Positions 350 through 35,009 of a stretch of DNA of 35,884 nt are shown one piece after another. Position numbers and translations under genes: made by a program. The first letter of the stretch is position 1, and every line of letters starts with the position of its first letter. The notes below the pieces were generated by a model that ran no database searches, was not told where the DNA came from, and saw nothing but the letters and a program-made list of their open reading frames with translations. The DNA lies in IMG/VR virus record IMGVR_UViG_3300035670_000716, positions 1 to 35,884 of that record, one strand, 5' to 3'. This stretch comes from a virus (taxonomy: Duplodnaviria; Caudoviricetes).

Positions 350-813
350 CGTGCCCTCGCGATCACTCCCATGACCGTGGCGATGTTCACCCGGTGCCTG
401 TGTGCGGTGATGATTGCCCTGCTCTCATGCGGGATAGTGGCAAGCTCGCGCCATGTCTGTGCGATGCGCTCAGTCTCGGTCAGCGGAGGCTTGATTAGCT
501 CCTGAGGCTTCTTGGCCGGTGGCCGTGCCTTCGGGTTTGGCTTGTAGGTAACCCGATGTTGAGCTACACAGCGTGGATGCCCGCACGTCGCGTGGCCTGC
601 GCTCTTCGCTGGTTGATCGCCACAGATCGTGCACATATTCCTTCTCCGTGCACGATCCATGGCGACGATCTTGTATCGCCAGTAGTAGTTCGGCCTACCA
701 GGTCCGCCGCGCTCATGCAGCGCATGCCGTGCAGTCTTCAGAACGTGGTTGTGCGACATTCCGAGCATCCGAGCCGCCTCGGAGGTTGTGACGAAGCGTC
801 CGTCATTCTCCAT
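346..813 (-). CDS. HTH DNA-binding protein with Cys/His zinc-finger-like region
   Basis: N-terminal TTSEAARMLGMS is an excisionase/MerR-like HTH; CTIC...CGHPRC follows. Confidence 0.65.
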   Translation of the reverse strand: MENDGRFVTTSEAARMLGMSHNHVLKTARHALHERGGPGRPNYYWRYKIVAMDRARRRNMCTICGDQPAKSAGHATCGHPRCVAQHRVTYKPNPKARPPAKKPQELIKPPLTETERIAQTWRELATIPHESRAIITAHRHRVNIATVMGVIARAR

Positions 814-2104
814 TGAGCACCACCGCGAGTCGTGCGGCGATCCAGAAGGCCACAGTGCTCGTCACACCATTACCGCATGCTGCATACCTGCGCGAATCCG
901 GGGCGTGATCCTTCTTCCGCCACGGAATGTTCGTCCATCCATCTGGATAGCCCTGAAGTCGCTCGCACTCCAGAGGCGTCAGGCGACGCACTCGCGGCTG
1001 CTCGACGACCATGCCTGTGTAGTTCTCATGCCAACCCGGATCGTTGGCATTCGACTTCGTGATCGCTCCGACGACAGCGTGAGTTGTGCGTACATCGCCT
1101 ACATCGAACGTATTGAGCGTATTGGCGATGCCGTCATCTACCCATGTCTCAGGTGAATCAGGTCCGCTGACTCTTGCGCTCTTGCGGAAGGCAATGAGAT
1201 CGGTAGCCGACTTAGCCTGCCTCGCAACCTGAGTGGATGCGATCTCTTCCTCGTCGTAGGCCCCGGAAGCCTTCTGCTGGAACGTCTGGACTACCAGGTG
1301 CCCGCTTGCAGCGGACTCGGCGTCCATCCTCCAGCCGCGCCCCTGCGCTGCCATCAGCGTCCCTGCGATATCCGCAGTAGTGACGAGTATGTACGCCTGA
1401 CCCGAATGCGGTCCGTCCTTCGCCGCTAGGGTTCCGACGACTCGTCCCTCGCTGCCACTTCCCTCAGTGCCTTGTCCAGATCGGGCGGCAGCGAACGGCC
1501 ACGACGGCCCGCCCTCCGCAAGATGCCCGCTGCTGCTTTCGGTGAGAGCGAGTACCTCTCCGATGCGTCTGGCTGCAGAATGCTCACCAGCGATGGCGAG
1601 CACGAACACTCGTCTTCTCCGCTGTGGCACGCCGAAGTGCTGCGAGTCAAGAAGCCGGTAGGTCCACTCATACCCGCGCTCGGCCAACGCTTCCAAGACG
1701 ACGGCAAAGTCCCTTCCGCCATTTGAGCTAAAGAGACCCTCCACGTTCTCCAAGAGGACTGCGCTGGGTCGAAGAGCGTCGGTGACTCGCATGAACTCGT
1801 GGAAGAGTCCTGATCGCTCGCCTGCGAGCCCTTTCCGCTTGCCTGCGACCGACAGATCTTGGCATGGGAATCCTCCCGCGAGCAGATCGAGGCTTCCTCT
1901 GTCTGGGAGTCCTCCGGGGTCGCCTGCTCCTGCGACGGCTCGCACGTCGTCGTAGACAGTGACACCTGGCCACCTGTGATGCAGGACTGCTCTGCAGTAC
2001 TCGTCAATCTCTGCGAAGAACTCATGCCGGAATCCTGCCGAGGTGATTCCGATATCCATGCCTCCGACTCCTGAGAAGAGCGATCCGCATGTGAGGTCAT
2101 TCAT
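803..2104 (-). CDS. DNA (cytosine-5)-methyltransferase
   Basis: Motifs I SLFSGVGG, IV GFPCQDLS, VI ENV, VIII PQRRRRVF, IX RRLTPLECERLQGYP, X GNGV; start reset to ATG 2104 after GGAGG. Confidence 0.95.
   Translation of the reverse strand: MNDLTCGSLFSGVGGMDIGITSAGFRHEFFAEIDEYCRAVLHHRWPGVTVYDDVRAVAGAGDPGGLPDRGSLDLLAGGFPCQDLSVAGKRKGLAGERSGLFHEFMRVTDALRPSAVLLENVEGLFSSNGGRDFAVVLEALAERGYEWTYRLLDSQHFGVPQRRRRVFVLAIAGEHSAARRIGEVLALTESSSGHLAEGGPSWPFAAARSGQGTEGSGSEGRVVGTLAAKDGPHSGQAYILVTTADIAGTLMAAQGRGWRMDAESAASGHLVVQTFQQKASGAYDEEEIASTQVARQAKSATDLIAFRKSARVSGPDSPETWVDDGIANTLNTFDVGDVRTTHAVVGAITKSNANDPGWHENYTGMVVEQPRVRRLTPLECERLQGYPDGWTNIPWRKKDHAPDSRRYAACGNGVTSTVAFWIAARLAVVLNGE
1426..2100 (-). CDS. Overprinted alternative-frame ORF inside the MTase, resembling the M.EcoHK31I beta polypeptide
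   Basis: 224-codon open frame ending WPSAGM...SLVSILQ...YSLSPKAAAGILRRAGRRGRSLPPDL; its ATG is 7 nt after the same GGAGG. Confidence 0.65.
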   Translation of the reverse strand: MTSHADRSSQESEAWISESPRQDSGMSSSQRLTSTAEQSCITGGQVSLSTTTCEPSQEQATPEDSQTEEASICSREDSHAKICRSQASGKGSQASDQDSSTSSCESPTLFDPAQSSWRTWRVSLAQMAEGTLPSSWKRWPSAGMSGPTGFLTRSTSACHSGEDECSCSPSLVSILQPDASERYSLSPKAAAGILRRAGRRGRSLPPDLDKALREVAARDESSEP

Positions 2105-15295: not shown

Positions 15296-15674
15296 ACGTG
15301 GCCTCGGCGTCCTCCAGAGCGGAGATACCGATGCCGCTCAGAGCCATAACTCGGTCAAGAACCCGGTTGATCGCTCGCATGGACTGACTCCGCACCCACT
15401 CATAGCCGTCATCGCCTAGCTCAGGCTCCACGATGCCGGCGATCACCAGGTAGGTCTGCAGCTTGGTTTCGTCCAGATTGCCGCGAGCGTCCGTGGCCTT
15501 CTGCTGAACCTCCTGATATGCCGCCATGGAGAGTTCACGCACCTTCACGCGAGAGTCCCACTCGGGCACATCAATCCACTCTTCGCGGAGAGTCTGCTTC
15601 TGCAGCAGATCCTCCACCGAAAGAACGGGCAGCGGCTGCCCCTCAGCCGCGCCCTTCGCCCCGGGCTCAGTCAT
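15279..15674 (-). CDS. Tail assembly chaperone (gpG-like)
   Basis: E.IDVPEW...VKVRELS...VEPEL; TGATG coupling to the tail tube gene. Confidence 0.8.
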   Translation of the reverse strand: MTEPGAKGAAEGQPLPVLSVEDLLQKQTLREEWIDVPEWDSRVKVRELSMAAYQEVQQKATDARGNLDETKLQTYLVIAGIVEPELGDDGYEWVRSQSMRAINRVLDRVMALSGIGISALEDAEATFLEEA

Positions 15675-16084
15675 CAGACCGTGCCCCGCGTGACAGCACC
15701 GGAGTTCTGGAACTCGGCGCTGAACCCGACCGCATCGCCCACATCGGCGCTGACCTCGAACGAAGTGAGGATTGCTGAGCCGCTGTAGTACGGACGGCCC
15801 GAAGCTGAGCCAGCCGGAAAGACCTTCCAGGCGCGAGGCGTACCGCCAAGCAGACCCGAGAGGTAGCCGTCCACCGTGCCGTCCCACTTACCCTCAATGG
15901 AGATCGTGCGGTCACGAAGGCCGGTGACGTACACCTTGTCGTCGTCGCCGAGAGTCGAAACCTCGGCAGTCTCCACCTCGGCGGGAATGCCGACAGAGGT
16001 GGAATAGCTGGTGAAGTTGCGCTCGGTCCCACCGGAATCGGTGATGTAGACCTCGGCATCCTTACCGTGGAAGAAAGTTGGCAA
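15674..16084 (-). CDS. Major tail tube protein
   Basis: ETAEVSTLGD...YVTGLRD.TISIEG...YSGSAILTSFEVSA.VGD; AGGAG RBS before a TTG start. Confidence 0.85.
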   Translation of the reverse strand: MPTFFHGKDAEVYITDSGGTERNFTSYSTSVGIPAEVETAEVSTLGDDDKVYVTGLRDRTISIEGKWDGTVDGYLSGLLGGTPRAWKVFPAGSASGRPYYSGSAILTSFEVSADVGDAVGFSAEFQNSGAVTRGTV

Positions 16085-16092
16085 CGTAACTC

Positions 16093-16794
16093 CTAACCGC
16101 GACCGAAGCCACAGACGAACGTGGCCGTGCCGCTGGTGATCGTATAGGTGAGCCTGGTGTAGCGGTTCACGGTTCCGGTCCCGGTAGTGCGGAAGGACTT
16201 GTTGGATGCCGTGATTGTGCCGACCGTCAGATAGTCAGTGTATGTGACGTTATCCGAGGACGACTGAATCTTGATGACGACGCTGCCCGCAGCTGCGGTG
16301 GCATGCGCGTAGGCATATCCGCCGTTCGCGGACGAGGCACCGTTGTCATAGACCGCAGCGGTGCCGCTGGTGCTGCGCTCTGCGAGAGCGTGGTGAGAGA
16401 TCAGCTGCTCGGTGCCGACTGAGGACTGACCCTCAATGCTCACCATGACCACATCACCCACATCAGCCGTGCGCTCGGCGGAAGTCACGTCCAGGTTGTA
16501 TCCCCGACCGCTGCTGCCTGCCGCATCACCTGACGGATAGATGCTCCAGATGCTCTTCGTGCCAGATCCAGTGATGGAGTGAACATCACCATCGAACGTG
16601 GCATCGAACAGACCCTCGGCGCTGATCGTCGCGTCCTGCATTCCAACAACGTAGGTCTTGTCATCGTCAGAGAACGTGGTGCTCTCTGCCGTATCAACCT
16701 CTGCGCTGCTGGATACTGAGCGGAGGTAGCCGGTCAGATCGTTGTCGTCCTGATAGACAACAGCGTTCTTCCCATGCGTGAATGTAGGGCTCAC
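16093..16794 (-). CDS. Tail tube paralogue with extra C-terminal beta domain
   Basis: First ~125 aa align by eye with 15674..16084 (PTF.HGK.A.VY, AEV.TAE..T..DDDK.YV.G..D.TIS.EG, ADVGD). Confidence 0.75.
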   Translation of the reverse strand: MSPTFTHGKNAVVYQDDNDLTGYLRSVSSSAEVDTAESTTFSDDDKTYVVGMQDATISAEGLFDATFDGDVHSITGSGTKSIWSIYPSGDAAGSSGRGYNLDVTSAERTADVGDVVMVSIEGQSSVGTEQLISHHALAERSTSGTAAVYDNGASSANGGYAYAHATAAAGSVVIKIQSSSDNVTYTDYLTVGTITASNKSFRTTGTGTVNRYTRLTYTITSGTATFVCGFGRG

Positions 16795-18199: not shown

Positions 18200-18768
18200 G
18201 ATTCGGTCCTGAGATTCCTTCGTTGCACGCGGGCACGCTTACGCAGCTCTCGGGCCTGATCGCGCATGTTCTTGACCTTCTGCGACAAGCTGAACGACTG
18301 CCCATCGGTTGAGAAGTCGAAGCATCGGGACTCATGCGCGGCCCATGAATCCAGAATCTCGGCAGCAGCGCCGTAGATGTCGTATGACCTGGCGCTGAGA
18401 TAGAGAGCGGTTCCCCCGGTGTCAGCAGCGAAGTCGAAGATGCCCAGCTGGTAGTCAGCCGTATAGGTGGCCGTTCCTCGGTCATCACCTACGGAGTCTT
18501 CGATGAAGAAGACCGCTGTACCACTCGCAGCAGTCTCCAGGAAGCCGTATGCGGAGCGAAGACGTGTATAGACGACTGATCCCCCTCCGATGTACGAAGG
18601 CTCGCGCAAGAGCTTATGACGGACGAGATCCTGCCGGTGACGATCCAGAACCTGCTCGATCTGATTGTCGTCCCAGTAGTTCGCCGTGCCGACGCTGTAT
18701 TCGGCGGTGCCGGCGTAGGTCAGTCCTCGCACCCTGGCGATGTTGTCGGCCATACCGCTTCTGCTCAT
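18196..18768 (-). CDS. Head-tail connector protein
   Basis: Gene position; D.QI...L and YGAAAEIL..WA...FS.DGQSFS.SQ. Confidence 0.65.
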   Translation of the reverse strand: MSRSGMADNIARVRGLTYAGTAEYSVGTANYWDDNQIEQVLDRHRQDLVRHKLLREPSYIGGGSVVYTRLRSAYGFLETAASGTAVFFIEDSVGDDRGTATYTADYQLGIFDFAADTGGTALYLSARSYDIYGAAAEILDSWAAHESRCFDFSTDGQSFSLSQKVKNMRDQARELRKRARVQRRNLRTES

Positions 18769-19727
18769 GCTGTCAGTGCTTCCTCCGGGGACAGAATCTC
18801 AGCCGCAGTCCAGGCCACGATCTGTCGAATGGTGTTCTCAGGCGACCATCCTAGTGATCTTGCAAGCGCCGCATCTGGCAGCTTCGTCCCGGCGCTCGCT
18901 TCCTCGTAGCGAGGACCGAAGATCCTCTTGCCTGATGTGTGAACGATCTCAGACTTTGAGCCAGTCACCTCTCTGACAACCCTGGCGAGATCGTTGATGG
19001 TTGTGCGGTTCTCTTCGTTGCCGACGTTGTATGCCTGCCCGGTCCAATCATCCGTTGCTGGCAAGTGATCGGTGATGAATCTGCATACATCCCATACTCC
19101 GGTGAATGCCCGCTCCTGCTCACCGCCCTCAAAGACTGTGATCGGCTTGTCCCTGAGCGCCTGATAGACCATGCGAGGCACAACGAATCCCTTGCCCTGC
19201 GCCTCGCGGGGACCGGCCATATTCCACGGCCTGATCTGTACGGCTCGGAGTCCCCTGGCGATAGAAGCTCCGACGATCTGCTCTGCGGCGATCTTGCCCG
19301 CCTGATACTCACCTCTGGCAGAGAACTTCTGCTGAATAGTGCATGGATCGCTCTCTGAGGCCTGACCAGTGATGCCGTAGATCTCTGAAGTGGAGATATT
19401 GACGAGAGGAACGTCAGCAACCACGCACGCATCTACGACTTTCTGCGTTGCCCAGACCACATCGCCGGCAATCGTGCCCTGAGCGGGAAGGATCGCAGCA
19501 GCGCCGACCGGGGAGGCTGCGTGCACAACAAGATCGGCAGAGGCGACGTACTTCGGGAGTATCTGCTTCGCGTCAGCGATCATCATGTGCGAGATCGTCG
19601 GATGAGTGACGCTCACGACATTCGCAGTCATGTTGTCAAGTCCGATGACTTCCCAACCGAGCTTCGCATAGCGATCCGCCAGGTGAGAACCCATGAAGCC
19701 GAGCGCCCCGGTAATCATCACCCTCAT
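18765..19727 (-). CDS. NAD-dependent NDP-sugar epimerase/dehydratase (extended SDR)
   Basis: ITGALGFMGSHL (GxxGxxG), STSEIYG, YQAGK (YxxxK), YNVG. Confidence 0.92.
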   Translation of the reverse strand: MRVMITGALGFMGSHLADRYAKLGWEVIGLDNMTANVVSVTHPTISHMMIADAKQILPKYVASADLVVHAASPVGAAAILPAQGTIAGDVVWATQKVVDACVVADVPLVNISTSEIYGITGQASESDPCTIQQKFSARGEYQAGKIAAEQIVGASIARGLRAVQIRPWNMAGPREAQGKGFVVPRMVYQALRDKPITVFEGGEQERAFTGVWDVCRFITDHLPATDDWTGQAYNVGNEENRTTINDLARVVREVTGSKSEIVHTSGKRIFGPRYEEASAGTKLPDAALARSLGWSPENTIRQIVAWTAAEILSPEEALTA

Positions 19728-20341
19728 ACGGCCACTCCGATCCAGTAGTCGGGATTCGCCAGAGATTGCTCGAACTGAAGCCGGTCAGTCATGGAGCGCC
19801 TTACCATGTCATCCCTGCCCGCGACTCCCTCCAGATGCGTGATTCTGTACGGATCACGATAGACCACGTTCATACCGAGCGAACGCGCTCTGGCCGCCAG
19901 GTAGTCGTCAGCGAAGTAGTGGATATCGAGGCACGGACCCATCTCCTGCCACACATACTGCGAGAAGAATGGGAACTGACTGCTGACCACAGGTGCCCAG
20001 TCAGCGCAATCAGTCAGTAGCCAGCCGCCACCCATTGAGCCAGTCGCCAGAACCGATCCATCCAGCTTCTGAAGCCTCGGTGCCGGGTAGAGCGACCGAT
20101 CAGCTGCTTCCATCGCCGCCTCTGCCCAGCCAGGATGCACGATCACATCATCTGCAGCGAGCATCAGGTATTCGCCCTGCGCTGCCTCTGCGCCGTCATT
20201 CCATGCAGTGCCTATTGCCCTGCGATCCTTCACGATGATGATCTGCAGCTCTTCTGCCGGCACGGTGGCTCGGAAAGAGGCGATGGTCTTCTGACATAGA
20301 TCCTCGCGTCCCTTGATCGTCGGGACTACGACAGATATCAC
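19724..20341 (-). CDS. Glycosyltransferase family 2 (GT-A)
   Basis: ISVVVPT...AWNDG...GEYL...ADDV...YFADD. Confidence 0.88.
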   Translation of the reverse strand: MISVVVPTIKGREDLCQKTIASFRATVPAEELQIIIVKDRRAIGTAWNDGAEAAQGEYLMLAADDVIVHPGWAEAAMEAADRSLYPAPRLQKLDGSVLATGSMGGGWLLTDCADWAPVVSSQFPFFSQYVWQEMGPCLDIHYFADDYLAARARSLGMNVVYRDPYRITHLEGVAGRDDMVRRSMTDRLQFEQSLANPDYWIGVAV

Positions 20342-21513
20342 TGCACGACCTCAACCGGGGGAGGCTCGGCGTCAGATGACTCCAGACGGTCAGAGAGTTC
20401 GTCCAGAAGAGGCTTCCAATAGTGCTGAGTGACCTCGTCTGCGTCGTATCGCATGGCGAACGCTCGCGCATCTTCCGCCAGGCGCTTATCTCCGCGTGCC
20501 TCGTATGCGGCCTCATAAGCCTCTAGGACGCCCTCAACGGTCGCTAGGTGCTGGTAGTCCAGCATGGGCGTAAGGATGCGTTCTGAGGCCGTTACAGTCC
20601 ATCCTGCGCCCACTAGCTCAGGCATCGCAGTCCAGCCACCGACGATGACCGGCGTGCCACACGCCTGAGCCTCAATGATCGGCACTCCGAATCCTTCGCC
20701 CATTGTCGGACTGCTGAGTACGTCCATTGAGCTATAGAGAGCGGCCATTACCTCGTCGTCGTAGCCGAGAAGGTTGCGGTACTGATCCGCCAGGCGAACG
20801 GAGTCCTCTGGCACCCCGGTAGCCTGCAGCACCCCCGGTATGTCCAGACCCTCCATTTCCGTACCGATATGCGTGTGTAGGTAGAGGATCGCATCGCTAT
20901 GACGCTCTCGGAGCCTGGCGAAAGCCTCAAACTGAGTCGGTAGTGCCTTGCGAGAGGGAATCCCCTTGTTCGCGGCCACGATGCCGACGATGAAGGCATC
21001 TTCTGGCAGTCCGAGCTTGACGCGAGCCTCGCGCTGATCCATCGGCGCATAGACGTTCGTATCCACTCCATGCGGAACGTAGCGTGGATCTAGCCCCGCA
21101 TCACGCGCTGCCTGCTCTGCGTGCTTGGCATATACGACCGGCTGCCAAGAATGCTTGACGGCCTCTCGGACCATATGCGGCACGCCTTCGTGATCCACCG
21201 GGAACCACGGCACCCACCTGGCGCCAGTAGATGTGATCTTGTCGTGCTTCATCACCCATCCGTCAATGAGGGTGATGACAATGTCCGCTTTGTGATCCTT
21301 CACATGCGGGCCGATCACATCCATTCCATATGGATGAAATGCCTTGGGATAGACCTTCATCCCGTTCCAGCCGATGGTTGCGCCCTCCAGCCCATAGAAG
21401 GCGCTCATAGCTACGTCATGGCCCAGGTCACGGATGCGTGGCGCGAAGATGCGCGTCTGCACTCCATAGCCAGTTGCAGTCCATGGTGCGTTGGAATGCC
21501 AGAGAATCCTCAA
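20338..21513 (-). CDS. Glycosyltransferase family 4 (GT-B)
   Basis: TGYG, VPHGVD, RK and EGFGVPIIEAQACG (EX7E); TTG start. Confidence 0.92.
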   Translation of the reverse strand: MRILWHSNAPWTATGYGVQTRIFAPRIRDLGHDVAMSAFYGLEGATIGWNGMKVYPKAFHPYGMDVIGPHVKDHKADIVITLIDGWVMKHDKITSTGARWVPWFPVDHEGVPHMVREAVKHSWQPVVYAKHAEQAARDAGLDPRYVPHGVDTNVYAPMDQREARVKLGLPEDAFIVGIVAANKGIPSRKALPTQFEAFARLRERHSDAILYLHTHIGTEMEGLDIPGVLQATGVPEDSVRLADQYRNLLGYDDEVMAALYSSMDVLSSPTMGEGFGVPIIEAQACGTPVIVGGWTAMPELVGAGWTVTASERILTPMLDYQHLATVEGVLEAYEAAYEARGDKRLAEDARAFAMRYDADEVTQHYWKPLLDELSDRLESSDAEPPPVEVVQ

Positions 21514-30023: not shown

Positions 30024-31265
30024 TCAGAACCTGGGGGCACGCACTCCACGGACCTTTCCCGGTGAAGCAAGATCAATCTCTGTAAGCGCCCATACGAGCG
30101 CATCAAGCCTGTCAGGAGACTTCGGACTATCGGGCGTCCAGGTCACCAGCTGGTCTTCCAGCTCTGAGAAGACGCCGGCATGGAACACCCTGCCCTGCTC
30201 ATAGAGCGCGGCGACCGGCTCCGCACGGACTCTCTTCCCCCTCGTCGCATGTACGAGCTTGACAGGCACACGCGGATCAACTGTCTTCAAGACGGTCTTG
30301 ACCATATCTCCGCCCTGATTAGCCTCGGCAACGATCCTGTCAGCGCCGTATTCGTGGTATGCGGCGATAGCGTGCCTGGCCCATCCATCGGGCGTCATCC
30401 TGCATGTCAGATCAGCGAGCACATACCCCGCCCCGGTATCCCTCCCGGCGACGATGATGCCAGTCTCGTCCGAGTCCTCCCCAGAAGTGATCGCAGGGTC
30501 TATCGCTACGACAAGCTTGGTCATCTCAGGGTCTTCCTTCGGATAACCGGCTATCGCGTGATCCAGCATCTCCCTTGTCCAGAGCGCACCTGGCACATCA
30601 TCCAGAATCTCGGCGTACAGCTCCTGCCTGCCGAGCCGCGTGCCCTCGTACCGCTGCATGACACGTTCGAGGAATGCCGGCGCCAGGTTGTCCGCGTTGT
30701 CGAAGGTGCTTCCCCTCGTAACCACGGTCTTCTCAGCGAGGATCAGATCCCTGACTTCCTTCGTCGGCCGAGGAGTCGTCGTGACGATGCACCGGGGATC
30801 AAGCCCTAGTCGCAAGCCGAACTGCAGCTGATCCCATGCCTCTGGGTAGCGCCAGGCTGCCAGCTCGTCGCACCAGGCCGCGTCATGCTGCGGTCCTCTG
30901 AGGCGATCAGGCTCGTCAGCGGAGTACGTGGTGCATATCGCGCCATTGGCGAAGGTGATCCTGCGCTTGGATGGCTCATAGTTGGCCTCCATGTCATCGG
31001 GAGCGATAGCCATAAGGCCGCTCTCTCCCTCCACCATCACATCACGCACATCTGCTGCGGTAGGTCCGACCAGAGCGACGCGTTCTGCACCGTCCTCCAC
31101 TCGGTCAATGACCCACTCGGCCCCGGTGCGCGTCTTGCCCCATCCACGACCTGCCAGGATCAGCCATACCCGCCACTCTCCCGCCGGGGGCATCTGCTCG
31201 CGCCTGCGCCATGCAAGCCACGGCCTGCGCTCTACGGCCCTGAGAGCTGCTTCCTCAGTCACCAT
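30024..31265 (-). CDS. terL: Terminase large subunit
   Basis: Walker A AGRGWGKT, LRGPQ, Walker B AWCDE, TTTP, nuclease AIDPA...DETG and SPDRLDAL. Confidence 0.95.
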   Translation of the reverse strand: MVTEEAALRAVERRPWLAWRRREQMPPAGEWRVWLILAGRGWGKTRTGAEWVIDRVEDGAERVALVGPTAADVRDVMVEGESGLMAIAPDDMEANYEPSKRRITFANGAICTTYSADEPDRLRGPQHDAAWCDELAAWRYPEAWDQLQFGLRLGLDPRCIVTTTPRPTKEVRDLILAEKTVVTRGSTFDNADNLAPAFLERVMQRYEGTRLGRQELYAEILDDVPGALWTREMLDHAIAGYPKEDPEMTKLVVAIDPAITSGEDSDETGIIVAGRDTGAGYVLADLTCRMTPDGWARHAIAAYHEYGADRIVAEANQGGDMVKTVLKTVDPRVPVKLVHATRGKRVRAEPVAALYEQGRVFHAGVFSELEDQLVTWTPDSPKSPDRLDALVWALTEIDLASPGKVRGVRAPRF

Positions 31266-31473
31266 CCGTCAGCTGCCCGAGCCGCACGGCCAGATCAGCG
31301 ATCTGCGGTGCCGAGTAGGTAAGCGCCCTGTCATCAGCACTTCTGAGCCTCCGCGCCAGGTGCCCGATCAGATCCTCTTCCATGAGGATATCCAGCATCT
31401 GCGAGTCCTTACCGGCTTGGAATGCTGCTCGTAGCCGCTTGCCGGCGTCAGATAGCGATATCTCGGCTGCCAT
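31255..31473 (-). CDS. Hypothetical protein
   Basis: Coupled between ssb (TAATG overlap) and terL. Confidence 0.55.
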   Translation of the reverse strand: MAAEISLSDAGKRLRAAFQAGKDSQMLDILMEEDLIGHLARRLRSADDRALTYSAPQIADLAVRLGQLTDGD

Positions 31474-31880
31474 TAGAACGGAATGTCGTCTGTGGCGCTC
31501 TCAGGGGCGTTCTGCGGGCCTTCGTTGCTTGATTGGCCCTCCTGCCTATCCTTGCGCGGGGAGACACGCTGTACGGCCTGAGCGACGATCTCATGTGCCT
31601 GGCGAGTGCTGCCGTCCTGCGCCTGCCACTCGCGCCATGCCAGCCTCCCGGTGACAACCACCTGATCGCCCTTGTCTAGCGCACCGGCCAGCACCTCTGC
31701 AAGCCTGCCGAAGACCGTCACATCCACATACTGCGGCTGATCCTCCCACGAATCACCAACCTTCTTGCTGTGTGAGAAGGCCAGGCGCAGCTTCGTAATG
31801 GTGGTTGCCCCGGCCTCGCGTGACTCAGGTGCCTTGGTCAGCCTGCCTACCAGAGTGATGCTGTTGATATCGGTCGCCAC
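31473..31880 (-). CDS. ssb: Single-stranded DNA-binding protein
   Basis: N..TLVGRLT..PE.R, KG..V.V.GRL and C-terminal DDIPF. Confidence 0.95.
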   Translation of the reverse strand: MATDINSITLVGRLTKAPESREAGATTITKLRLAFSHSKKVGDSWEDQPQYVDVTVFGRLAEVLAGALDKGDQVVVTGRLAWREWQAQDGSTRQAHEIVAQAVQRVSPRKDRQEGQSSNEGPQNAPESATDDIPF

Positions 31881-31891
31881 TTGTGCCCCTT

Positions 31892-32338
31892 TCAGCCTTC
31901 GGCGGCTTTCTTCGCACGCCTCGCGGCCAGCTCGTCAATGATCTCGGTCACTCGCGCCCTGCCTTCGTCGCTTGTGACCACCTCGGATTGTATAGGTCCG
32001 CCGTTCGCCCCGGTGAGTTCCAGACCATCACGCCTGCGCCAGCGATCCGGCTTGCTGCGCTCCAGATACCACGCTGCTGCTCGCCAGTCGTTACGCGCTG
32101 CCTGTTGCACGATGACCACGTTCCTGGCCTCTGCCTCGGCCCTCGCGCGTGTTGCACGCTCCCGAAACTCCTTGTAACGCTCTGGAGCATCCTCCTGAGC
32201 GCCGGTCTGCATCCAGCGGAAGTACGTCGTGCTGCCGATGCCGGCAAGCTCGCAGGCAGTCTCAATGTTGTTCCCCACGCTCAGATGCTTGATCAGCGCA
32301 TCAGCCTTCTCGGAATCCAGCAGATCAGGACGGCCCAT
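31892..32338 (-). CDS. terS: Terminase small subunit
   Basis: MGRP, HTH (ACELAGIGSTTYFRW), DWRAAAWYLER, ELTGANGGPI; ATG overlaps the FkbM stop. Confidence 0.85.
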   Translation of the reverse strand: MGRPDLLDSEKADALIKHLSVGNNIETACELAGIGSTTYFRWMQTGAQEDAPERYKEFRERATRARAEAEARNVVIVQQAARNDWRAAAWYLERSKPDRWRRRDGLELTGANGGPIQSEVVTSDEGRARVTEIIDELAARRAKKAAEG

Positions 32339-33027
32339 CAGTCGCACCAGACCGTTCTGCATGGGGGAAACCACTCACCTGGCCATTCGTCGTGCCCCGG
32401 TGCGATCTTTCCGTAGCGAACTCGGTCGTACTTCTCCTGCAGACCGGCGATCACCGCGTCGAACCTCTTGATTGAGGGATCAATGTCGAATGACCACTCG
32501 AAGACGAGTCTGACCGGCAGCGAGTCCATCATCTGCTCCAGAATCGGCATCTCAGCTCCCTCGGCGTCAAGCTTGATGTGCATGGCCTGATCCCACACAT
32601 CCGAGACAGGAATGCACTGCACTTCTACCTCTGAGCCACCTCGCCAGGGCTTGTAGAGGCTGTTCCTCCAGACATTGCCCTTCGCCGTATTGCGATGAAG
32701 CGTCATGGTGCTTGCCACTTCGCCGTGGACGAGAGCAGCTTCATGAACGGTGACGTAGCTCTCCATTCCGTTCAGAGCCACGTTATGCCTTGCCTGCTCG
32801 CATGAGTCTGGATCAGGCTCGTAGGCTTCTACCGTTGCTCCCCAGGATGCGGCCCAGATAGCGAACGCTCCGACGTTGCATCCGATATCGAGCCACCTCT
32901 CACCGGGACCTGGCAGGAAGTCGCGCCTGGCGTACCCCTTCCTCTCCACTACCTCGCGGACCGCCTTCTCATCCGAAGTATCAGGCCGGCAGTCGAAGAT
33001 CAGCCCATCTACCTCTACCCGGTTCAT
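32338..33027 (-). CDS. FkbM-family SAM-dependent methyltransferase
   Basis: LDIGCNVGAF, AYEPDP, IKLDAEGAE. Confidence 0.88.
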   Translation of the reverse strand: MNRVEVDGLIFDCRPDTSDEKAVREVVERKGYARRDFLPGPGERWLDIGCNVGAFAIWAASWGATVEAYEPDPDSCEQARHNVALNGMESYVTVHEAALVHGEVASTMTLHRNTAKGNVWRNSLYKPWRGGSEVEVQCIPVSDVWDQAMHIKLDAEGAEMPILEQMMDSLPVRLVFEWSFDIDPSIKRFDAVIAGLQEKYDRVRYGKIAPGHDEWPGEWFPPCRTVWCD

Positions 33028-33866
33028 CCGTCGTCCTCGGAGATATTGATGGAGTCATCCACCATATGGATCTCACGCTCTGAGCGAGTCGTCCGCGCCC
33101 TCTCTTGCTCTACAGCGACGGTGAAGCAGTCCTTCATGCCCTTCATCGCGTAATAGACGACCGAGTAGCGATAGGCATCGCGGCGGATCGGAACCATCGG
33201 TGTGACACCGTGTACGAGAGCCTGCCCGAGAAAGAACGTCACCCATCCGTCACGACAGGCACAAGTCAGGTTGTACTCAGGGATATCGAGGTATCCGCCG
33301 CGCATGTGACGCCTGATGACCGGCATGGCGGACCATGTGTCGAAGTTGGCTCTGTCGAGGTGATAGGGCAGAGCAGCTGAGCGATTGACGACTCCGCTTG
33401 TCCAGAGGGAATCGTCTGTCATTCGCCACTCCGGGAGAACCTGCTCTACGACTGCATGATCGTGATCGGCTACCTCAGGCAGAAGATCGCGCATCATCTC
33501 CGTGAATACGTCCGCCAGGTCTACGAGAACCTGATGAGACTCTGGCTGCTCCACGCTCATGGTGGTGGCAGTGCATGCCTCGCGGCGCATCATCGGCTTG
33601 CGCGGTGCCATACCGAAAGTCCGAGACACATTCGCCATGCCATTCGCCCTTACGGTGCTTGCCATCTTCAGATCCATGACAGCTCGTCGCAGCTCGGGGA
33701 CCATGCGAGGCATGGGCAGATAGACGAAGACCGGCTGATCGGTATCGGCGTCCACGTAGATACCGGGGGTGATGCAGTTGGCTTCCTTGTCCCCGACGCT
33801 ATCGCCGATAAGACCCTTGGCCTCGTCGGTCGTCATCACGCGCTCTATGCGGTGGATATCAGTCAC
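33024..33866 (-). CDS. TET/JBP-family 2OG-Fe(II) dioxygenase (5-methylpyrimidine dioxygenase)
   Basis: WTSGVVN, YHLD.AN (HxD), GGYL.IPEY, HGVTP (distal His), RYSVVYY (2OG-binding Arg); SRTFG.APR N-terminal motif of phage TET/JBP. Confidence 0.88.
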   Translation of the reverse strand: MTDIHRIERVMTTDEAKGLIGDSVGDKEANCITPGIYVDADTDQPVFVYLPMPRMVPELRRAVMDLKMASTVRANGMANVSRTFGMAPRKPMMRREACTATTMSVEQPESHQVLVDLADVFTEMMRDLLPEVADHDHAVVEQVLPEWRMTDDSLWTSGVVNRSAALPYHLDRANFDTWSAMPVIRRHMRGGYLDIPEYNLTCACRDGWVTFFLGQALVHGVTPMVPIRRDAYRYSVVYYAMKGMKDCFTVAVEQERARTTRSEREIHMVDDSINISEDDG

Positions 33867-34509
33867 GCGGGCACTCCTGGCCGGTTGCCTCTTCGATCAG
33901 TCGCCTGACGGCCTCAGCGTTGTTCTCGACACCGTATTCCTCGCGCAGCTCTGAGAGGCGATCAACCATCCAGCGGAATCGCTCCAGCGAGTAATCCAGC
34001 ATGATCGAGCGGGTCGCCGCGTTCTGATAGCGGTCATAACGATCGCCGGCAGTATCCTGGCTACCGACATTGGCATCGGGATTCGGCAGCGGAGCGGACT
34101 CCTGCAGGTCAGCGATGATGTCGTCAAGGTCTTCCAGCGAGTATCCGGTTCCGCTGATTGCATCGCCTGTCTCGGCAAGCTCACGCAGGATCTCGGCCAG
34201 GCCCTCGGTGTCATAGGACGCGAGATCGTTGGTGCGGTTGTCAGCGAGAAGGATGCGAAGTGCAGTCTCGTCGTCGCAGTCCACTTCGATTGCTGGAACC
34301 TTGTCCGCCCCGGCTTGGAGCGCCGCCATGAGGCGATGATTTCCACCGATGACATGCCCGGTGGACTTCTGGAAGATGATCGCCCCGTAGAAGCCGTTGG
34401 ACTCTATGGACTCATGGATAGCGCCCACATCGCCCTGACGAGGATTAGACGGGTGCGGCTTCAGCTTGCCGATCGGTGTGAGTGCGTACTTCTGCTGGTT
34501 GACCTTCAT
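33859..34509 (-). CDS. ParB/Srx-like N-terminal domain protein
   Basis: LKPHP.NPR.GD...I.ESI...GF, GNHRL.AA, LADNR. Confidence 0.88.
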   Translation of the reverse strand: MKVNQQKYALTPIGKLKPHPSNPRQGDVGAIHESIESNGFYGAIIFQKSTGHVIGGNHRLMAALQAGADKVPAIEVDCDDETALRILLADNRTNDLASYDTEGLAEILRELAETGDAISGTGYSLEDLDDIIADLQESAPLPNPDANVGSQDTAGDRYDRYQNAATRSIMLDYSLERFRWMVDRLSELREEYGVENNAEAVRRLIEEATGQECPRD

Positions 34510-34517
34510 GGTGCCCC

Positions 34518-35009
34518 TTACCAGGTGATTTCGTCCTCCGACCGCCGGGTGATCGGCACCTGATCCACTTCATGCCATTCGAGCCGGTGGCGGACTTCCT
34601 GCGCCGTGCGAGTGAATACCTGCACAAGATTACATCCATCGCAGTATATGAAGCGGTCCTGAGCCAAGAGCTTGACAGGCCCCTGGCACTTGCTGCAGTA
34701 CCTTCCTGCGACTTCTGGAAGTCCTGACGGTCCATCGTCCCGAGACTTGGTCGCTATGAGCCTCTGACTTGATGCGTGGAGTATGCAACCCATCACCTCG
34801 TGCGGACCCGGCGGCCAGCCAGACGTAGGCGACTTCTCAATCACAGAGTCGAACCCATCTGCGATATCAGCCTCGCTGATCCTGCGCTCCTGACGGATGA
34901 TCGCCTGGCGAATCTCGTCCATCACTTCAGGCTTCTTCTTCAGCGTCGGCCAGAGATTCTGCAGACGTTCAAGCTGCTGATCTATGGCCTGTGTGAGCGT
35001 GCTCGTCAA
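34518..35009 (-). CDS. Replication-associated protein (helicase-loader-like helical domain plus Zn ribbon)
   Basis: Follows rep/ori; WPP.P.EV motif, CSKC...CDGC; AGGAG RBS before a TTG start. Confidence 0.5.
   Translation of the reverse strand: MTSTLTQAIDQQLERLQNLWPTLKKKPEVMDEIRQAIIRQERRISEADIADGFDSVIEKSPTSGWPPGPHEVMGCILHASSQRLIATKSRDDGPSGLPEVAGRYCSKCQGPVKLLAQDRFIYCDGCNLVQVFTRTAQEVRHRLEWHEVDQVPITRRSEDEITW

Follow-up and report, generated by a model that had tools for sequence, protein, structure and literature searches.

Oxidases of the TET/JBP family are said to have been found in phages together with ParB and terminase genes by Iyer and colleagues in 2013. Here we describe an operon of a ParB-like protein, a TET/JBP-fold oxidase, an FkbM-family methyltransferase and the terminase small subunit (terS) in a 35,884-nt Caudoviricetes sequence (IMG/VR record IMGVR_UViG_3300035670_000716; the whole stretch is called the window below), and compare it with the closest described systems, cited from the accessible parts of the papers. 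In clade C1 of the 5mYOX enzymes (5mYOX176/ParB176; O'Toole et al., PNAS 2026, PMC13229309), as in the window, a ParB lacking a helix-turn-helix (HTH) lies beside an HxD...H...R oxidase, with no linked C5-cytosine methyltransferase (C5-MTase) and with a terminase close by. Unlike clade C1, where the partner is a transferase, kinase or GATase, the window has a methyltransferase as partner, and its oxidase, which shares 22% identity with 5mYOX182, falls outside the clade. The window would also resemble the 5-hydroxymethyluracil (5hmU) kinase/amino acid:DNA transferase pathway (Lee et al., PMC8989533) in acting after replication on a C5 hydroxymethyl group, and genes of that pathway occupy the slot of FkbM in 52 of the 78 sister loci, but in the window one S-adenosylmethionine (SAM) enzyme would cap the oxygen, without phosphorylation or an amine. 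The phage C5-MTase/TET/glycosyltransferase clusters (Burke et al., PMC8256090) likewise combine a TET-made hydroxymethyl acceptor with a tailoring enzyme; their linked, co-evolving C5-MTase and glycosyltransferase, however, are not conserved in loci with FkbM and TET.

Actinophages Nigel, Cooper and Tonitrus have oxidases of the same branch (43–54% identity) at the same site before the terminase. Nigel carries a bare ParB-TET-terS set with no gene between oxidase and terS, where the window has FkbM, and Tonitrus carries a transferase and a kinase instead of FkbM (PMC11955845). Dataset S10 of PMC13229309 gives “O-methyltransferase (FkbM)” on 6–7% of mined contigs, counted without an assay and, in the text available, without adjacency to the oxidase being described. 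Term searches found FkbM unmentioned in the accessible main texts of PMC8256090, PMC8989533, PMC7824862 and two preprints, and the literature searched yielded no paper that joins FkbM to phage TET or to modified bases or that describes a methoxymethyl hypermodification, which does not establish absence from print. New here are a count of mutual exclusion between FkbM and other tailoring genes, the displacement by thymidylate-synthase-family genes, the finding that the oxidase falls outside the tested clade, and a cultured phage as test system.

A four-gene operon ending in terS

The genes of the operon and those downstream of it were as follows.

33859..34509, minus strand, ParB-like protein, 216 aa
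33024..33866, minus strand, TET/JBP-fold Fe(II)/2-oxoglutarate (2OG) dioxygenase, 280 aa, GTG start
32338..33027, minus strand, FkbM-family SAM methyltransferase, 229 aa
31892..32338, minus strand, terS, 148 aa, phrog_4102 (E 6e-33)
31473-31880, minus strand, single-stranded DNA-binding protein (Pfam SSB), downstream context
30024-31265, minus strand, terminase large subunit (Pfam Terminase_6N/6C), downstream context

All four operon genes were intact, and their positions and overlapping stops and starts agreed with the initial annotation: the ParB-like and TET genes overlap by 8 nt (GTGACTGA), TET and FkbM by ATGA, and FkbM and terS by TGATG, so that terS is translationally coupled to FkbM. 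An alternative in-frame terS start, GTG at 32374, is possible; phrog_4102 aligns from the first residue of the 148-aa protein. The ParB-like, TET and FkbM genes are under purifying selection (dN/dS against the related contig L001 of 0.054, 0.095 and 0.065, respectively). A contig from sequencing run X17 covered 32235-34700 without a gap, and no indels were listed in any of the four runs compared. No RNA data set containing the sequence was listed. A scan for promoters and terminators gave a signal no better than chance. The genome is circular: the 55 nt at either end of the window agree with each other at 54 of 55 positions, and the junction is spanned without a break by contig L002 (91–97% identity to the window).

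Linkage of FkbM to TET

Homologues of the window FkbM numbered 584 at E 1e-10 or better, and the motifs of its subfamily occurred in about 770 IMG/VR stretches (the tool's estimate). Viral FkbM loci were counted in the best 80 of 490 confirmed. In 77 of these 80 a same-strand TET gene lay within 600 bp of FkbM, upstream of it in 25 and downstream in 52, and 43 types of TET-adjacent FkbM were left after thinning at 70% identity. Among metagenome matches, 40 of the 52 strong ones had TET nearby, contig ends cutting 9 of the 12 misses; the figure for weak matches was 2 of 28. Weak matches in Streptomyces phage Yaboi and Rhodococcus phage Grayson had no TET annotated within 5 kb. A ParB gene lay within 1.5 kb of TET in 78 of 80 TET loci.

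The two enzymes were also found as single proteins. Among 47 long homologues, 23 were TET-FkbM fusions (21 with both Pfam domains, two recognized with a custom TET profile). Fusions were placed at two points in the FkbM tree (a quick IQ-TREE result) and at two in the TET tree, and the fused oxidases were spread over several TET branches, the tested clade included. The adjacency first noticed in the window is thus conserved, and the window FkbM belongs to a subfamily dedicated to TET partners.

FkbM in the tailoring slot

Of the 78 sister TET loci lacking FkbM, 76 held another tailoring gene between TET and the terminase and two held none; the count of 76 is partly circular, because the tailoring hidden Markov models (HMMs) were built from TET-only loci. 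In 52 loci the slot held an amino acid:DNA transferase, a P-loop kinase or both, often with an FAD oxidoreductase or pyridoxal-phosphate (PLP) enzyme added; eight loci had a TAGT-like gene and 16 had unannotated genes. By comparison, any other tailoring gene was present in 1 of 77 FkbM loci (L078). In searches of 24 whole FkbM+TET records, ADDT turned up in one, and a protein query for the TAGT-like slot protein, whose positive control matched, found it in 0 of 24. The initial annotation had put FkbM in the slot of a tailoring enzyme, and these counts support it. FkbM is an exchangeable add-on, since Nigel has the bare ParB-TET-terS set and a sister locus with 73% TET identity (L087) lacks FkbM. 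In L087 (7248-8072), the closest FkbM-less sister, a Mom-family gene comes after ParB-TET-terS.

Among the unannotated genes, a pair (308 and 148 aa) occurred in 14 loci (e.g. L092:6852-8221) and another gene, of 315 aa, in two (e.g. L091:6507-7454). The unannotated slot genes, c22 among them, looked GT-B-like by eye and had no Pfam, PHROG or PDB match.

The oxidase and the ParB-like protein

The iron triad and 2OG-binding arginine of the oxidase (H169-x-D171, H219 and R233) did not vary in any of the 41 homologues aligned. On Pfam Tet_JBP (PF12851) it scored 25.7 bits (E 7e-6), below the curated cut-off of 34.9; PF12851 is described as under-detecting phage members (PMC13229309). A sequence search of the PDB was weak (CcTet, E 0.03). 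With a structural model of mean pLDDT 87, Foldseek ranks 1–26 were CcTet, human TET2, NgTET1 and CMD1 (E 8e-13 to 3e-8), and AlkB folds appeared only from E 4e-7, so by its model the oxidase is nearer to TET/JBP than to AlkB. Its earlier assignment to TET/JBP is therefore upheld by the structure search and falls short at the Pfam cut-off. The oxidase also matched phrog_6059, labelled queuine tRNA-ribosyltransferase, a function ruled out by fold and motifs. RefSeq and PHROGs give this label to this TET branch, and the ParB-like gene of cyanophage MED4-117 is labelled DNA methylase.

By identity (54% to Tonitrus gp3, 44% to Nigel gp2), the oxidase is of the Cooper/Nigel/Tonitrus branch, and it is predicted to be a thymine hydroxylase. 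For this branch no activity data were found in the literature searched. On a C1-type profile it scored 51 bits against 330–363 for insiders of the clade; at 22% identity to 5mYOX182 and outside its clade it was not assigned to the tested ParB-dependent class, although the tree held one tested C1 member and the wider C1 boundary of the paper may differ. By analogy it probably works like that class, whose tested ParB-linked members make mainly 5hmU and need their own ParB on plain double-stranded DNA (PMC13229309). The amino acid:DNA transferases and kinases of such slots act on 5hmU (PMC8989533), and because sister TET loci carry these thymine-tailoring genes, the modified base is likely thymine. 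The initial annotation had offered cytosine and uracil products as equal options; with the closest TETs in the company of thymine-tailoring genes, that parity is not supported.

The ParB-like protein matched phrog_723 (E 1e-38) and is composed of an N-terminal ParB/Srx domain (NBD) and a C-terminal domain (CTD). It scored 25.7 bits on Pfam ParB_N, under the cut-off of 26.3, and no HTH was matched in Pfam and PHROG searches. Its residues 5-206 align at 24% identity, that is end to end, to the ParB beside 5mYOX182. In related pairs ParB activates the phage dioxygenase (PMC13229309), and by this analogy the ParB-like protein is likely an activator of the window oxidase. Such a role fits better than the link to packaging proposed for it earlier, a tie that had gene position as its sole basis.

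The FkbM methyltransferase

The FkbM family is best known for O-methylation, and many of its members act on sugars. The window protein scored well above the cut-offs of TIGR01444 (68.2 bits, cut-off 37.7) and PF05050 (44.9 bits, cut-off 22.7), and its best BFVD matches were FkbM proteins; a sequence search of the PDB gave weak matches to generic methyltransferases. The motifs DxGxNxG, WRN, KxDxEGxE and EWSFD showed little or no variation across 52 sequences; among them the invariant WR and EWSFD are additions of the subfamily to the general FkbM motifs. From its family and setting, the protein is predicted to be an O-methyltransferase for a hydroxymethyl base.

Three long proteins (P0265, P0266 and P0268, the last from the alga Aureococcus) have an FkbM-like C-terminus, preceded in P0265 and P0266 by a region bearing HxD...H; they are possible eukaryotic oxidase-methylase fusions.

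A predicted pathway to 5-methoxymethyluracil

We propose that thymine is converted to 5hmU and then to 5-methoxymethyluracil by a ParB-activated TET/JBP oxidase and FkbM, a pathway that we rate at about an even chance. Late in infection, the ParB-like protein would activate the oxidase on replicated phage DNA; the oxidase would hydroxylate some thymines to 5hmU; and FkbM would move the methyl group of SAM onto the 5hmU hydroxyl. The methyl cap would likely hide the free hydroxymethyl group from nucleases and glycosylases and block restriction, and coupling to terS may time expression of the cassette to packaging. We infer the thymine substrate, the dependence on ParB and the O-methylation of the base from gene content and relatives.

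Several observations weigh against this pathway. The functions of the ParB-like protein, TET and FkbM are all predictions. Since the oxidase lies outside the clade of tested 5mYOX182 (support 100, FastTree), its thymine specificity and its need for ParB are carried over from neighbours and relatives. The fold matches of FkbM were generic class I methyltransferases (VIA Z 12–14), with tRNA N- and C-methylases outranking the FkbM protein 2py6 (Z 12.2, rmsd 3.0, 163 aligned), so that structure leaves the acceptor atom unfixed; moreover, the protein is acidic (24 K+R, 38 D+E) and has no DNA-binding domain. Many of the loci counted were near-duplicates, the tailoring HMMs had the origin given above, one locus (L217) showed ParB-FkbM with no TET seen, and the core member L078 has a transferase and a kinase in addition to FkbM. 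The window genome itself encodes a C5-MTase and two glycosyltransferases. Lastly, two of the thymidylate-synthase-family genes described below are Asp-type (cytosine-like), and a hydroxymethylase function for such genes is a prediction.

The acceptor of the methyl group

Four core members of the FkbM subfamily (L175, L072, L026 and L027) were TET-less, meaning that no TET was present at the locus examined, whole-record absence not being established. They grouped with one TET-linked member (support 95), and a thymidylate-synthase-family gene accompanied three of them. In L175, genes for dCMP deaminase, dUTPase_2, a kinase, a thymidylate-synthase-family protein and then FkbM stand in a row (L175:1874-4858), a possible nucleotide-pool route to methylated hydroxymethylcytosine. 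The synthase-family gene was 2.6 kb from FkbM in L072 and about 9 kb from it in the L026 genome, and none was present in the L027 fragment; a query found no viral relatives of the L175 gene. By the Asn/Asp rule, the L175 and L072 genes would be cytosine-type (Asp) and that of L026 uracil-type. More distant FkbM relatives adjoin 5-hmdU kinases. Because routes through synthase-family proteins or kinases cannot make a carboxyl group, the hydroxymethyl oxygen is most simply the acceptor shared by the subfamily, making an ether likelier than an ester.

A radical SAM protein was found in the place of TET, beside FkbM in L199 (L199:313-1560) and fused to FkbM in P0241. Among 80 viral loci of this protein (L246-L325), a ParB-like gene was present in 69, an amino acid:DNA transferase in 49, a kinase-like gene in 59, GNAT in 41, a TAGT-like gene in 12, and TET and FkbM in none. 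A thymidylate-synthase-family gene was absent from 26 of 26 records with the radical SAM protein, and the protein had no match among cultured phages. It is a candidate oxygen-independent thymine activator. Somewhat doubtfully, the FkbM subfamily may be a general hydroxymethylpyrimidine O-methyltransferase, the first to build a methyl ether onto a DNA base. The C5 oxygen would then come from three unrelated sources: a TET/JBP oxidase, a hydroxymethylase of the nucleotide pool or the TET-replacing radical SAM enzyme.

It is unlikely, although by a narrow margin the most probable of the alternatives, that FkbM acts on modified DNA away from the hydroxyl, at a ring nitrogen, an installed amine or a released nucleotide. 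Its fold neighbours, which include tRNA and rRNA N- and C-methylases, would suit such a role. FkbM relatives in L078 (3819-7977) and L221 (3444-7523) stand with an amino acid:DNA transferase, an FAD-oxidoreductase-like gene and a kinase, counterparts of which in PaMx11 make 5-aminomethyluracil (PMC8989533). Because FkbM is combined there with amine-installing genes, a nitrogen acceptor is possible in these two loci; by analogy the sets recall tRNA MnmC and could make 5-methylaminomethyluracil in DNA. However, in 76 of the 77 FkbM+TET loci there is no transferase or kinase that could provide an amine, base pairing would be blocked by N3-methylation, and O-methylation is the activity for which the family is best known.

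Marginally less probably, the oxidase would proceed to 5-carboxyuracil (5caU) and FkbM would form its methyl ester. Phage T-dioxygenases can oxidize iteratively in vitro, and 5mYOX97 builds up 5caU on circular DNA (PMC13229309); the tested ParB-dependent enzyme 5mYOX176, however, gives less than 3% each of 5-formyluracil and 5caU (PMC13229309), and the synthase-family genes that also accompany the FkbM subfamily supply no carboxyl.

As improbable as the ester is methylation of a sugar (on 5hmU or the capsid) or of a protein (the oxidase, ParB or terminase). FkbM proteins often act on sugars, the window FkbM is acidic, and the window carries a set of sugar genes missing from the initial annotation:

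18765-21513, minus strand, GT1-type and GT2-type glycosyltransferases with an NAD-dependent epimerase, flanked by capsid and head-closure genes

Their location makes these look more like genes for capsid glycosylation than for DNA modification. The glycosyltransferases lie 11 kb from the operon and match no ORF in TET or FkbM loci, and neither type is present in five of eight complete FkbM+TET records or in MED4-117. The absence of the TAGT-like slot protein from the 24 FkbM+TET records also argues against a sugar, and a protein target would leave the exclusion of other tailoring genes unexplained.

The C5-MTase and the cytosine route

The initial annotation had placed a C5-MTase about 2 kb upstream of the operon across the circular junction, a position that was confirmed:

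803..2104 (end approximate), minus strand, C5-cytosine DNA methyltransferase, TIGR00675 199 bits, intact

It lies about 2.1 kb upstream of the ParB-like gene. Among the FkbM loci with TET, a C5-MTase was present within 6 kb in 5 of 77, one of them the near-identical L007, and none was found in the MED4-117 genome. Least likely of all is a route in which 5-methylcytosine (5mC) made by this enzyme is oxidized to 5-hydroxymethylcytosine (5hmC) and capped as 5-methoxymethylcytosine: the intact gene nearby, the oxidation of 5mC in vitro by tested T-dioxygenases (PMC13229309) and the Asp-type synthase-family genes of TET-less L175 and L072 speak for it, but a C5-MTase was present in only 2 of 24 FkbM+TET records and in none of the 8 that were complete, five unrelated ORFs separate it from the operon, and the sister TETs are paired with thymine-tailoring genes. 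Thus, the C5-MTase is not part of the conserved module, and the earlier view of it as a member of the pathway is not supported. Because L175 and L072 adjoin Asp-type genes, the subfamily may accept hydroxymethylcytosine, and a minor cytosine product beside the uracil product is possible in the window phage.

Other features of the genome

Across the window TTAA, AATT and TCGA were depleted against Markov expectation (0.14, 0.16 and 0.43, respectively), which suggests avoidance of restriction sites. Two tandem homologues of the major tail protein were present at 15674-16794 (minus strand).

Cultured phages and significance

Cyanophage MED4-117 carries ParB-FkbM-TET ahead of its terminase genes (NC_020857.1 12347-14471), and since this phage is cultured the cassette is directly testable. 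The same methylase is present at 37% identity in MED4-184 and P-HS2, which may be one phage. A measured activity of the cassette would be the first for the Cooper/Nigel branch of TET/JBP.

The predicted product of the proposed 5hmU pathway is a natural DNA base not yet measured, made by an enzyme activity absent from the literature searched, and the cassette, with its three genes, is both minimal and common. If the prediction is true, SAM-dependent alkylation of 5hmU or 5hmC in DNA would be a labelling tool for oxidized bases. If the subfamily is a general hydroxymethylpyrimidine O-methyltransferase, 5-methoxymethyluracil (in some phages 5-methoxymethylcytosine) would occur in many aquatic phage genomes, those of cultured Prochlorococcus phages included.

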